32,000 nucleotides of DNA. Source: Candidatus Heimdallarchaeota archaeon. GTDB lineage: Archaea > Asgardarchaeota > Heimdallarchaeia > Heimdallarchaeales > Heimdallarchaeaceae. Below the pieces are notes generated by a model. The model was not told the DNA's origin. It made no database searches and saw only the letters and a list, made by a program, of their open reading frames with translations. The translations under genes were made by a program, and so were the position numbers. Below, piece by piece: positions 5,367 to 20,926 of the stretch; the stretch's first letter is position 1, and each line of letters starts with the position of its first letter. Location: NCBI GenBank assembly GCA_030668875.1, contig DAOVER010000004.1, positions 73,507 to 105,506 of the forward strand, given 5' to 3'.

Positions 5367-6368
5367 ATGAAGAAAAAACTTGAAGTAGCCTTAGTTGGTT
5401 GTGGTGCTGTTGCAGAATATTACCACTTGCCTGTTTTGCAAAGAATGCCAGAATATAATGTAAAATATCTTGTGGATTTAAGCAAAGATAGGGCAGAAAC
5501 AATCAAGAAACGTTTTCGGATGAGTTCTAAAACTGAAACGAATTTTGAGAAAATTTTAAACGATGACCAACTAGATGCCGTAATGATTCTTACTCCACCC
5601 ACACTTCATAAAGATCAAATATTCTTAGCAGCAGAGGCAAAAAAAGCAATATTCTGCGAGAAACCATTATCAATGAATGTCAATGAGGCTGTAGAGATTG
5701 TTGGTATATGCAAGAAAAATGATGTTCCTATTCTCCCAGGTTATCAAATGCGTTTTGATGGAAAGTATTCAAAGATTAAAGAACTCATAGATAAGAAAAT
5801 GTTTGGAGAACTCATAGGAGGACAAGGATTGCACTTTGCTAATGCATTTGAATGGCCAAGTGTTTCTAAGTTTCAAATAGATGATAAGAAAGGTGGGGGG
5901 GCACTATTTGAGATGATGCATTTTGTAGATTTATCAACCTGGTATTTTGGTAAAGCAATATCTATGACTGCGACAATATCTAAAAAGAAGAAGAAATCAC
6001 CTATAGATGACACTGCAAACTTGCACATAACCTTTGAAAATGATGTTTCGGTTTCATTAAGTATAGGTTGGAACACCATAACTGTAAATTCTTTTACTGT
6101 TTATGGAACAGAGGGATATTTACGAGCATTATCGGATTCAAAGAAAATGCAGTATCATGCTAAAAATTTCCTTGCTCAACAACCTATTCTAATTAAGCCT
6201 AATCATACCATCTCGCCTTTTCAAGATGAGTTGCTACATTTCTATAGAATTATTACCGAGAACAAAACCCCAATGATAACACAACAAGAAATTATTCAAA
6301 ATGCGAAAATTGTTGAAATAGCTTACAGTGAATCAAGCAAAAACAAGACCATGATGTTGGAGGATTAA
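5367..6368 (+). CDS. Gfo/Idh/MocA family NAD(P)-dependent oxidoreductase (WbpB-like by context)
   Basis: VALVGCGAVA Rossmann motif, LTPPTLH, IFCEKPLS, GGGALFEMMHFVDL. Confidence 0.9.
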   Translation: MKKKLEVALVGCGAVAEYYHLPVLQRMPEYNVKYLVDLSKDRAETIKKRFRMSSKTETNFEKILNDDQLDAVMILTPPTLHKDQIFLAAEAKKAIFCEKPLSMNVNEAVEIVGICKKNDVPILPGYQMRFDGKYSKIKELIDKKMFGELIGGQGLHFANAFEWPSVSKFQIDDKKGGGALFEMMHFVDLSTWYFGKAISMTATISKKKKKSPIDDTANLHITFENDVSVSLSIGWNTITVNSFTVYGTEGYLRALSDSKKMQYHAKNFLAQQPILIKPNHTISPFQDELLHFYRIITENKTPMITQQEIIQNAKIVEIAYSESSKNKTMMLED

Positions 6369-6369
6369 C

Positions 6370-7434
6370 ATGCTTCCCCGAGTTATTGTGTCTAAGATAC
6401 TCAGCCCTAAAGATGTTAATAAGAGGGTTAGTCAATCTCTTGATGCCTTGTCAACTGCTTTTGTTGATGACGATTTAGTGGCTATCAAACCCAATTTATG
6501 TGACTTTAGACCTTATGAACAAGGCGGAACTACTGATCCAAACATAATCGAAGCAATTATTGTTTATATTCGAAAGCAATCATCCTGTCAAATCGCTATT
6601 GTTGAAAGCGATCATGCTCTTGCTACAGCTGATGAAGAATTCCAAAGAATGAACTATAGTTACCTTGAAGACAAATATGAAAATGTGAGTTTGGTTAACT
6701 TAACAACTGATGCTCAAAAGCAGATAGCTGTTGATGGATATTATTTTCAAGAATTAACAGTAGCAGAGACTTTACTCAAAATGACCAAGTTCATCAATGT
6801 TGCGAAACTAAAAACACATACACTGACAAGAATAACATGTATTTTGAAAAACCAATTTGGTTTGATATCTAGAAGATACAAGAAGCGATATCACCCAGTT
6901 CTTAGCGAGGTTTTACTCGATTTAATTGGTTTATTCCCTCCAGATATTTCAGTTGTAGATGGAATATATTCGATGGAAGGTGCTGGTCCTTCTGATGGAG
7001 ATTTAAGAAAAACAAACATTCTACTTTTTGGCGATAATCCAATTGTAACTGATGTTGTAGCAGCAAAAATCATGGGAATTAAACCAAGTAGAGTTCCAGT
7101 CTTGAGACTAGCTAAGAGGAAGAGAATTAGTGATTTAAACCACGAGAAAATTGAAAGCTTACCCAACTTCCGCTTCAAGCAGGCTCCTTGGTATTCTTTT
7201 GCAGCTAGGCGTTTTGGTTTAAAATATCAGAAGAGAGCAGCCAAACGATATAAGAAGAAAATAGAACATGCGAAATTCATCTCTGATGTGGCAGCAGGAT
7301 TTATTGTTATTCAACAAGGTAAATATCCTACCTTACAATCAGGATTAATTGATCGAAAAATATTCTGGAGAGTTGTAAAGAGCATGATTAGAAGACCATT
7401 TGTGTTGCTCAATCATAGGTTAAAAGGCATCTGA
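6370..7434 (+). CDS. DUF362 domain protein with basic C-terminal extension
   Basis: VAIKPNLC, TTDPNIIEA, AKLKTHTLTRITCILKNQFG, VVDGIYSMEGAGP and NPIVTDVVAAKIMG are typical DUF362 blocks. Starts 1 nt after the upstream stop. Confidence 0.8.
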   Translation: MLPRVIVSKILSPKDVNKRVSQSLDALSTAFVDDDLVAIKPNLCDFRPYEQGGTTDPNIIEAIIVYIRKQSSCQIAIVESDHALATADEEFQRMNYSYLEDKYENVSLVNLTTDAQKQIAVDGYYFQELTVAETLLKMTKFINVAKLKTHTLTRITCILKNQFGLISRRYKKRYHPVLSEVLLDLIGLFPPDISVVDGIYSMEGAGPSDGDLRKTNILLFGDNPIVTDVVAAKIMGIKPSRVPVLRLAKRKRISDLNHEKIESLPNFRFKQAPWYSFAARRFGLKYQKRAAKRYKKKIEHAKFISDVAAGFIVIQQGKYPTLQSGLIDRKIFWRVVKSMIRRPFVLLNHRLKGI

Positions 7435-19783: not shown

Positions 19784-19786
19784 AAT

Positions 19787-20926
19787 ATGGATAGTCTTAG
19801 AATAGTTCAAGTGACACCTTTCTTTGGATCAAAGAGCTATGGTGGAACTGAAAGATATGTGAATTATCTATCTAAAGAATTAGCACGTAGAGGACATCAT
19901 ATCGACGTGTTCACGACAAAGAAATCAACTAAGGTACCATATCAGAGTTATTATGACAATATGACTGTTCATAGATTCTTCAGTCCTATGGATATATTTG
20001 GGATTAATCCAGCTTGTATAATGCTCCACCAATTAATGAAAATAAAGGACATTGATGTCTTTCATGTACACTCTTACATTTATTTTACAACCATTCAAGC
20101 TGCAATCACGAAATTGTTCAGAAGAATACCTCTTCTCTTACACATTCATGGCGGTGTAGGTAGACCTCCTTATAAAACAAGTTTTATGAAAGAGTTCGCT
20201 AAGATGTTTTTCGATTATACTTTAGGGAGATTTGTCTTATCTCAGGCTGATATAATCGCTTCTGTCAGTCAATATGATAAAGAATTATTGGAGGATAGTT
20301 TACATTCCAGACAAGAAAGACTAACTTTAGTAAACAATGCCATAGATACAAGTCTATTTCTTGAAGCAAAACCAGTTCAAAGCAAAAACATGATTATCTC
20401 ATATGTGGGTGATCTTGAACCTTGGAAAGGCATTTTTTATTATTCTAAAGTCATCGATAGCATTCTCAAACAAAGAAAAGACATAAAATTCTGGTTCATA
20501 GGTCAAGGTTCACTATTTCCAATTTTGAAGAAAAAATATGAAGATGAGAGAAGAGTCAAACTGTTTGGTTCAGTTAATCATACAGAAATTCCTTCCTTGC
20601 TTGAGAAAACTAACTTTCTACTTCTGCCTAGTTTCTGGGAGGGTTCTCCTACCGTAATAATAGAAGCAATGGCTATGGGAATACCTGTGATAGGATCTAA
20701 TATTGGTGATATCCCTCGATTACTAAATAACGGAAATGAAGGTACACTCTTTGAAGTTGGAAACACTCTGTCACTTGAAAAAACAATTATTGATTGTGTA
20801 GATAGTTATGATTTATGTTTAAACAAAGCCTTGAAAGCAAAAAGGAGAATTAGAAGCGAGTTTTCTTTTTTGAGTGTCACTAATCAGATAGAGAAACTAT
20901 TCTATAAGCTAGCAAACAAACAATAG
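19787..20926 (+). CDS. GT4 family glycosyltransferase
   Basis: YGGTERYVNYLSKELARRGH, VNNAID, YVGDLEPWKG, PSFWEGSPTVIIEAM. Confidence 0.92.
   Translation: MDSLRIVQVTPFFGSKSYGGTERYVNYLSKELARRGHHIDVFTTKKSTKVPYQSYYDNMTVHRFFSPMDIFGINPACIMLHQLMKIKDIDVFHVHSYIYFTTIQAAITKLFRRIPLLLHIHGGVGRPPYKTSFMKEFAKMFFDYTLGRFVLSQADIIASVSQYDKELLEDSLHSRQERLTLVNNAIDTSLFLEAKPVQSKNMIISYVGDLEPWKGIFYYSKVIDSILKQRKDIKFWFIGQGSLFPILKKKYEDERRVKLFGSVNHTEIPSLLEKTNFLLLPSFWEGSPTVIIEAMAMGIPVIGSNIGDIPRLLNNGNEGTLFEVGNTLSLEKTIIDCVDSYDLCLNKALKAKRRIRSEFSFLSVTNQIEKLFYKLANKQ

Follow-up and report, generated by a model that had tools for sequence, protein, structure and literature searches.

The stretch of DNA analyzed here (the window, 32,000 nt) derives from contig C38 (34% G+C) of a metagenome-assembled genome (MAG; 92% complete) of the Heimdallarchaeaceae and carries, between positions 5,367 and 20,926, genes for polyamine-type enzymes tightly packed with glycosyltransferase (GT) genes. 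This region is a composite of an accessory glycan gene set and a family-wide core, the latter encoding a LysA-like pyridoxal phosphate (PLP)-dependent decarboxylase, a YkgJ-type Cys-rich protein, a BpsA-like transferase and sometimes a metallo-β-lactamase (MBL)-fold hydrolase. With moderate confidence, we read the core as a source of the aminopropyl unit for spermidine-type polyamines that is independent of decarboxylated S-adenosylmethionine (dcSAM), accompanied by a separate accessory glycan set. The original prediction, made from the sequence of the window, had instead proposed that the deacylase of the same locus frees a sugar amine, to which the BpsA-like enzyme then adds an aminopropyl group. 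This part is not supported: the core persists without GT genes, no S-adenosylmethionine (SAM) decarboxylase was found, the position of a donor-binding aspartate (Asp159 of Thermococcus BpsA) is occupied by serine, and there is a housekeeping gap in polyamine synthesis for the core to fill.

Conservation of the core and of its glycosyltransferase neighbors

Fourteen genes, their spacing and a 142-nt divergent spacer were found in the list of open reading frames (ORFs) and in the Pfam, NCBIfam and PDB searches used for family calls exactly as predicted (Table 1). Leftward of the spacer, the decarboxylase gene is followed by those for the YkgJ-type protein, a GT2, a GT4, an ArnD-like deacylase and a second GT4 (gaps of 23, 5, –4, 39 and 0 nt), the end of this string lying 9 nt from that of a convergent exosortase-like gene. 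Rightward, the BpsA-like gene precedes those for the MBL-fold hydrolase, a 589-aa polytopic membrane protein (TM589) and a third GT4 (gaps of 31, 8 and 3 nt). For comparison, the genera of the family were labelled g1 (the window's own), g10, g11, g12 and g13; most of the genomes are incomplete MAGs and the relatives represent non-independent samples. On the contigs bearing the locus in 22 same-genus genomes, all genes stand in window order at protein identities down to 45–60%, and the order of the two divergent strings is retained in 25 related genomes from three genera (g1, g10 and g11, protein identity 45–90%), the full cluster being present in g10 and g11. The MBL gene is missing from six g1 loci and from g13, the GFO/IDH/MocA and DUF362 genes from many loci. 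However, the flanking housekeeping genes (MetRS, ThiF, PHP and RIO1) are equally syntenic, so that conservation within the genus is by itself weak evidence.

The remaining two genera possess the core without its neighbors. In g12, the locus on a 130-kb contig reads acyltransferase, YkgJ and decarboxylase, then divergently BpsA-like and MBL, followed by MetRS, and is devoid of GT genes, deacylase, TM589 and sortase-like gene on both sides. In g13, comprising Ca. Heimdallarchaeum aukensis and Ca. H. endolithica with closed genomes (CP084166 and CP084167), only the BpsA-like gene divergent from the decarboxylase–YkgJ pair is present, placed between enoyl-CoA hydratase and amino-acid kinase genes and adjoining gyrase. 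Genome-wide searches of g12 and g13 gave no homologs of the ArnD-like protein or TM589. In all five genera the YkgJ gene directly follows the decarboxylase gene, and the YkgJ/decarboxylase/BpsA-like core also occurs in a second Asgard family. The retention of the core in g12 and g13 without GT genes shows that it is independent of the latter. In a tree of two core proteins, g12 groups with the GT-bearing g11 (94% support in the Shimodaira–Hasegawa-like approximate likelihood ratio test, deeper order not resolved), and the simplest history suggests that g12 has lost both GT blocks while retaining the core. Judged from these comparisons, the core is most likely a housekeeping module predating and outliving its GT neighbors.

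These findings bear directly on the proposal that the polyamine-type enzymes serve the glycan, with the ArnD-like enzyme unmasking the amine of a lipid-carrier sugar, the BpsA-like enzyme aminopropylating it together with the decarboxylase (or a polyamine being attached) and the GT-C-like TM589 exporting a polycationic glycan or lipid. An ArnD-type deacylase would indeed yield a free amine, and the operon-like packing to either side of a single promoter region is found in g1, g10 and g11 at about 50% identity. We nevertheless regard this proposal as quite unlikely, as the core is kept where GT genes have been lost or are absent (g12, g13, the genome G396 of the other Asgard family and bacterial contigs), the flanking housekeeping genes are as syntenic as the GT genes, the checked motifs of the BpsA-like protein show no difference between genera with and without GT genes, and no ligase or other coupling enzyme is encoded in the locus. 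Hence, a decorated glycan should not be deduced solely from close spacing to glycosyltransferase genes.

Polyamine gene content of the family

To our knowledge, all polyamine aminopropyl additions described so far use either dcSAM or aspartate semialdehyde. SAM decarboxylase of the PF02675 type was found in none of the 30 family genomes, while the same search matched 7 control and 157 Asgard genomes; hence, the dcSAM donor does not appear to be made in the known way. In the window's genome, the second SAM decarboxylase family (PF01536) was likewise not found, in a search run without positive control, and SpeE gave only sub-threshold matches. Genes for deoxyhypusine synthase, a pyruvoyl-dependent arginine decarboxylase and two arginase-family (agmatinase-type) proteins, on the other hand, are present in this genome. 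By sequence assignment, this gene set is the archaeal agmatine route to spermidine minus the aminopropyl step. Since these enzymes are present but SpeD and SpeE were not found, the core pair of decarboxylase and BpsA-like transferase would fill a housekeeping gap. The search of 29 further genomes of the family gave the BpsA-like gene in all of them and an ortholog of the decarboxylase gene in 28, always adjoining the BpsA-like gene.

The BpsA-like transferase

The BpsA-like protein has the BpsA_C (DUF43) domain and fold, with matches to PDB entries 5XNC (E 8e-37) and 2QM3 (E 1e-38). It shares about 40% identity over 256 residues with the branched-chain polyamine synthase BpsA, an N4-bis(aminopropyl)spermidine synthase, from Thermococcus kodakarensis and Thermus thermophilus (EC 2.5.1.128; PDB 5XNC and 6J27), and both the TDPP and the N-x-Y segment are retained. 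The GDDD motif of the Thermococcus enzyme contains Asp159 and Asp160, which hold the dcSAM amine and are essential (PMC12979288). The corresponding motif in the window protein is G165-D-S-D168, placing Ser at the Asp159 position. This replacement by Ser, in one case by Gly, is fixed across the Heimdall clade, and G396 shows GDGD. Unlike BpsA with its acidic, aminopropyl-carrying tail, the window protein ends in a Cys4 ribbon (CxxC...CPxC; invariant Cys343, Cys346, Cys369 and Cys372) without an acidic cluster, the Thermococcus tail lying outside the alignment. At the acceptor site, where the alignment is locally uncertain, Asp225 (TDPP) and Tyr290 (NKY) appear to be retained and Glu259 aligns with Pro. 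The GDSD, TDPPYT and Zn ribbon motifs do not differ between GT-bearing and GT-less genera. Also in contrast to BpsA, a dcSAM source was not found in the genome and the partner gene encodes a PLP decarboxylase instead of an AdoMet_dc protein. A complex prediction for the BpsA-like protein and the decarboxylase gave a score of 0.00, which amounts to no verdict and was counted neither way.

A second, shorter BpsA_C paralog is encoded on another contig of the same genome (G000:C88:38886-39422, L002) in a 294-aa frame with GDMD, EPP instead of DPP and, at the C-terminus, a Cys4 ribbon. This GDMD paralog spans the order, including families with neither AdoMet_dc nor the decarboxylase of the core.

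The partner decarboxylase

The decarboxylase is best matched by the lysA model (TIGR01048, 264.5 bits), albeit below the cut-off of 297.9, and is the only LysA-like protein encoded in the genome. Scores against the models for nspC (TIGR01047, 51.7 bits, cut-off 409) and the exosortase-A-associated decarboxylase (TIGR03099, 167.5 bits, cut-off 478.45) are far lower. The catalytic core with IKAN, HVHVG, GGG, EPGR and C353 aligns with LysA from Helicobacter pylori and is invariant. In contrast, the subfamily has invariant GGPLCLPxD and GAxxLIPxR segments where H. pylori LysA has CES and RPSLY, C-L-P and -PMRY of the window protein aligning with these two elements; the subfamily is referred to as CLP decarboxylases here. 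In LysA, CES and RPxLY are the residues at the substrate end. Searches for diaminopimelate (DAP) epimerase (DapF), the one dap gene covered, were negative in all 30 family genomes, two of which are closed. Housekeeping LysA was thus rejected as an identity, given the sub-cut-off score, the lack of a detectable DAP epimerase and the replaced substrate-end residues. Although the decarboxylase is the sole candidate in the genome and lysA its best family, an ordinary lysine-pathway enzyme heading a glycan operon is extremely improbable also because true LysA-like proteins elsewhere in Asgard archaea are only 27–34% identical to it.

A decarboxylase of the same fold is also found in the GT-rich PEP-CTERM/exosortase A loci of bacteria (TIGR03099), in company with an exosortase-family gene. 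The partners of the bacterial enzyme are an acyl-CoA ligase and a carrier protein. In the window, by contrast, both partners are absent, and it is the BpsA-like gene rather than the sortase gene that the decarboxylase accompanies.

Recurrence of the altered motif and the decarboxylase

Among 399 Asgard genomes, BpsA_C is present in 212 and AdoMet_dc in 157, and numerous lineages have them side by side. Fusions of BpsA_C with SAM decarboxylase in a single frame of 460–510 aa occur in two large Asgard groups (L072:8053-9507, minus strand; L078:8593-9978, minus strand) and among global representatives (P0137, P0167 and P0209), tying the standard BpsA family to dcSAM. Wherever the motif was read in a BpsA-type gene adjoining AdoMet_dc or fused to it, GDDD was found. 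AdoMet_dc and the CLP decarboxylase were never found together in the genomes searched, and in the window's family the latter occupies the place of AdoMet_dc beside the BpsA-type gene. Likewise, G396 has no AdoMet_dc but a decarboxylase of 40% identity at a distance of 3.5 kb from its BpsA-like gene.

In a set of 150 global BpsA-family representatives, GDDD was found in 137, while S, G or N occurs in 15, distributed over no fewer than four places on the tree. The neighborhoods of nine altered-motif representatives were read, the non-Asgard sample being small. In P0136, the decarboxylase is encoded by an overlapping downstream ORF; its sister P0109 shows a truncated decarboxylase N-terminus on a short contig, and in P0049 the decarboxylase gene is two genes away. 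P0100 groups with the window's own clade, and the contigs of P0102 and P0218 are too short for judging the presence of a decarboxylase. Altogether, the pair of an altered motif and a CLP decarboxylase recurs in at least three separate clades of the BpsA family, and the decarboxylases of these separate lineages share GGPLCLPxD and LIPxR. In a further lineage, a BpsA-like gene with GDND likewise has a CxxCxxCC gene as its neighbor.

The exchange of partners might also be explained by a new PLP-dependent SAM decarboxylase that supplies an ordinary dcSAM aminopropyltransferase, as the PLP enzyme sits in the genomic place of AdoMet_dc and both never co-occur in the genomes searched. With an unchanged donor, however, the aspartate holding the dcSAM amine should have been kept, yet it has been lost repeatedly, and in the neighborhoods read the decarboxylase stands only beside altered-motif genes. 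This explanation is accordingly considered distinctly improbable.

Several members of the BpsA family occur in other contexts. In the P0136 lineage, the BpsA-like/decarboxylase pair is followed, as overlapping ORFs, by a gene for a GNAT acetyltransferase (L085:4202-4654, plus strand), which possibly represents a polyamine acetylation step. GDDD-type family members are fused with GNAT (P0098, P0112 and P0128), PP-binding (P0107 and P0162) or LPG_synthase_C domains (P0110), hinting at uses beyond free polyamines.

Proposed route and alternative routes

As the decarboxylase was exchanged and the donor-amine aspartate lost jointly and more than once, direct transfer from SAM appears to be the most economical chemistry. 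In this route, the GDSD transferase would move the 3-amino-3-carboxypropyl (acp) group of SAM to an amine, for instance agmatine or putrescine, with release of methylthioadenosine (MTA). The PLP decarboxylase would then strip the carboxyl group, and an agmatinase-type enzyme encoded elsewhere would complete spermidine, on which deoxyhypusine synthase could draw for hypusination. Gene identities, synteny, phyletic patterns, motif changes and the lack of the standard genes were observed directly; donor, acceptor, order of steps and the product of the glycan set we infer from sequence comparisons, and co-transcription from gene spacing.

If true, carboxyaminopropyl transfer directly from SAM with subsequent decarboxylation would be a third solution for aminopropyl addition, and it would explain how a Heimdall family with deoxyhypusine synthase manages although it has neither SAM decarboxylase nor spermidine synthase. 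A further consequence would be an annotation rule for BpsA-type genes, namely GDDD together with AdoMet_dc or GD(S/G)D together with a GGPLCLP decarboxylase. In the literature, nothing relevant was found on a SAM-direct carboxyaminopropyl route, on DUF43 together with glycosyltransferases or on the function of YkgJ.

Two sets of known systems are comparable. In the carboxyspermidine and carboxyaminopropylagmatine pathways (CASDH or CAPADH plus PLP decarboxylase; PMC10599626, PMC13683441), an intermediate of the same type as proposed here is formed, the last step is likewise a PLP-dependent decarboxylation by an enzyme with alanine racemase fold, and genes for agmatine-based synthesis are present here as well. 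Unlike in these pathways, the unit would come from SAM via a BpsA-fold transferase and not from aspartate semialdehyde via a dehydrogenase, and the decarboxylase resembles LysA more than NspC. The acp transferases Tsr3, TapT, Taw2/TYW2 and nicotianamine synthase (PMC4872110, PMC6895100, PMC10491745) would resemble the proposed step, by inference only, in taking acp from SAM with release of MTA. Their folds, however, are not or only distantly related, their targets are RNA and small molecules, and none is known to feed polyamine synthesis.

Among the alternatives is a route of known type in which the decarboxylase acts on a carboxy-polyamine formed from aspartate semialdehyde by a saccharopine-dehydrogenase-like protein, or produces a diamine from a basic amino acid, while the GDSD protein alkylates protein or RNA. 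Carboxy-polyamine decarboxylases have the same fold as the enzyme of the core. In the window's genome, the nspC model matches only the latter, with the 51.7 bits given above and thus below its cut-off. BpsA-type genes are often located among translation genes, also in line with a protein or RNA target. A gene for a saccharopine-dehydrogenase-like protein (Sacchrp_dh_NADP plus Sacchrp_dh_C domains) is indeed present in 26 of the 30 family genomes. However, in no case does it lie near the pair (on contigs C22 and C38, respectively, in the window's genome; at 0.78 and 2.23 Mb in a closed one), its orthologs (55–65% identity) occur in genomes with AdoMet_dc and without CLP decarboxylase, and the repeated adjacency, the overlapping ORFs and the coupled motif change are left unexplained. 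On balance, a known-type route is unlikely. The dehydrogenase-like protein itself (381 aa; G000:C22:30983-32125, corresponding to L086:7981-9126, minus strand) is distributed patchily across Asgard archaea at 55–65% identity.

Direct transfer from SAM remains the favored chemistry, and a number of observations weigh against it. The saccharopine-dehydrogenase-like protein just described could be a carboxy-polyamine dehydrogenase. The link between motif and decarboxylase is not universal, since only a YkgJ-type gene is seen in the contig-level view of the P0103 neighborhood and no decarboxylase was found near P0056 or P0104 on contigs of usable length. Residues specific to the altered-motif group are limited to P129, T131 and F210, and a group-specific positively charged residue for holding the carboxylate was not found among them. 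Moreover, the SAM-direct route is a prediction from sequence. Finally, core and GT genes are joined at 5-nt and 8-nt junctions on both sides in three genera, which is unexplained if the two parts are unrelated.

From these short junctions, the GT genes of g1, g10 and g11 are presumably read from the promoters of the core, so that the packing would reflect either mere co-expression or a metabolic link, and the glycan pathway may make secondary use of the core product. A combined scheme, in which the ArnD-like enzyme of the three GT-bearing genera unmasks a sugar amine that the dcSAM-independent pair then also uses, giving a (carboxy)aminopropylated polycationic surface glycan or glycolipid in an archaeon closely related to eukaryotes, is judged very improbable.

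The accessory glycan genes

The accessory set, consisting of a GT2, three GT4s, the ArnD-like deacylase, the GT-C-like protein, an archaeosortase-like protein and an acyltransferase, is optional and lineage-restricted, and the GT genes look like an ordinary set for a surface glycan that is assembled on a lipid carrier and deacylated on the way. For the deacylase, the arnD model NF011923 matches with 96 bits across positions 3–277 of 294 (cut-off 382), and PDB entry 8T0J (ArnD) with E 4e-12 in an alignment that pairs the DVDT and H..H motifs. By sequence, the deacylase would be a family-level relative. The GT2 shows hydrophobic segments at about residues 243–286 and has its top NCBIfam matches among MftF, EpsD and PgaC types, not ArnC.

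TM589 had been predicted to be GT-C-like, an assignment that can be kept only tentatively. Hydropathy indicates about 13 hydrophobic segments, D33 and D61 are invariant, DUF6541 matches weakly in 4 of 15 orthologs, and look-alikes retrieved from a protein atlas by language model carry the GT-C families PMT_2, DUF2206 and DUF6541. On the other hand, there is no Pfam hit, and a TM589 profile found nothing among PDB sequences and, among 5.8 billion proteins, only Heimdallarchaeaceae orthologs, all at identities of at least 49%. AlphaFold2 modeling with 15 orthologs reached a mean confidence (pLDDT) of 49, too poor for a fold search.

The upstream genes originally described as a WbpB-like/DUF362/WbpD-like amino-sugar module do belong to the GFO/IDH/MocA, DUF362 and hexapeptide families, but these are generic, an aminotransferase is lacking, and the first two genes are missing in many relatives. 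All NCBIfam matches of the GFO/IDH/MocA protein are far below cut-off. The hexapeptide acyltransferase is retained by all relatives in the synteny comparison, including the genus without GT genes. The exosortase-like protein has about 7–8 hydrophobic segments by hydropathy; an identity as ArtC was rejected (23.7 bits versus a cut-off of 100).

The combination of an ArnD-family deacylase, a membrane GT2 and a GT-C-like protein is reminiscent of the bacterial 4-amino-4-deoxy-L-arabinose (L-Ara4N, Arn) pathway with its GT2 ArnC, deformylase ArnD and GT-C ArnT. In contrast to that pathway, the best matches of the GT2 do not include ArnC, the GT-C call is weak, equivalents of ArnA, ArnB, ArnE and ArnF are missing and scores lie below cut-offs. 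Archaea, as far as we know, have no lipid A. A locus with the combination seen in the window was not found in the literature, in agreement with the original statement that no described archaeal one was known.

Table 1. Features of the region, with positions in the window and the family evidence used for assignment.
Feature	Position	Strand	Evidence	Remark
GFO/IDH/MocA NAD oxidoreductase, generic sugar or inositol dehydrogenase type	5367..6368	+	PF01408/PF22725	variable among relatives
DUF362 protein	6370..7434	+	PF04015, 138 bits	only in some relatives' loci
Hexapeptide-repeat acyltransferase (NeuD/PglB/VioB type)	7489..8058	+	PF00132; TIGR03570, 96 bits, below cut-off	
69-aa ORF, resembling ribbon-helix-helix (CopG-like) regulators	8277..8486	+	by eye from translation	
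Exosortase/archaeosortase-family membrane protein	8668..9864	+	TIGR04178, 33.2 bits (cut-off 23); PF09721, 34.7 bits (cut-off 25.7)	
GT4 glycosyltransferase (a)	9874..11031	-	PF00534/PF13439	
ArnD-like CE4 deacylase	11032..11904	-	NF011923; PDB 8T0J	
GT4 glycosyltransferase (b)	11944..13167	-	PF00534, 126 bits	
GT2 glycosyltransferase with C-terminal membrane segments	13164..14153	-	PF00535	
YkgJ-type CxxCxxCC Cys-rich protein	14159..14683	-	PF03692	member of conserved core
LysA-like PLP decarboxylase, CLP subfamily	14707..15996	-	PF02784/PF00278	core partner of BpsA-like gene
AT-rich divergent spacer	15997..16138	.	sequence	
BpsA-like (DUF43) transferase, GDSD for GDDD, C-terminal Cys4 ribbon	16139..17299	+	PF01861, 166.9 bits	
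MBL-fold hydrolase	17331..18005	+	PF00753	optional core member
589-aa polytopic membrane protein (TM589), tentatively GT-C-like	18014..19783	+	no Pfam or NCBIfam match	
GT4 glycosyltransferase (c)	19787..20926	+	PF00534/PF13439	

Spacer and surroundings

Within the divergent spacer, a block of about 45 nt (approximately positions 16074–16118) contains two copies of AATTGAAAAAT and one TTATTAAA box. Five species share this block without any change, although its flanks diverge and protein identity among them is only about 75%, and a similar block is recognizable in three further g1 species. Other g1 and g10 species have a different common spacer block (…CCAGCATATTTTTGAATA…).

The surroundings of the region in the window are housekeeping genes (MutS, MutL, ThiF, MetRS, PHP, KH protein, RIO1, eIF1A, aIF2-beta and NMD3), and scans of the window with Rfam and for tRNAs gave no match. 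Sequencing runs containing the stretch are from marine-sediment DNA only, and no RNA run is listed. The 69-aa ORF, which the original prediction had not mentioned, lies in a 600-nt gap 5′ of the archaeosortase-like gene, its N-terminal region containing …ISIRLPSEFVEILDEMV…RSEAIRLALRDF…, and the corresponding gap in relatives is about as long. In Ca. Heimdallarchaeum aukensis, the gyrA gene (L067:15783-19592, plus strand) contains an intein with a LAGLIDADG homing-endonuclease domain.

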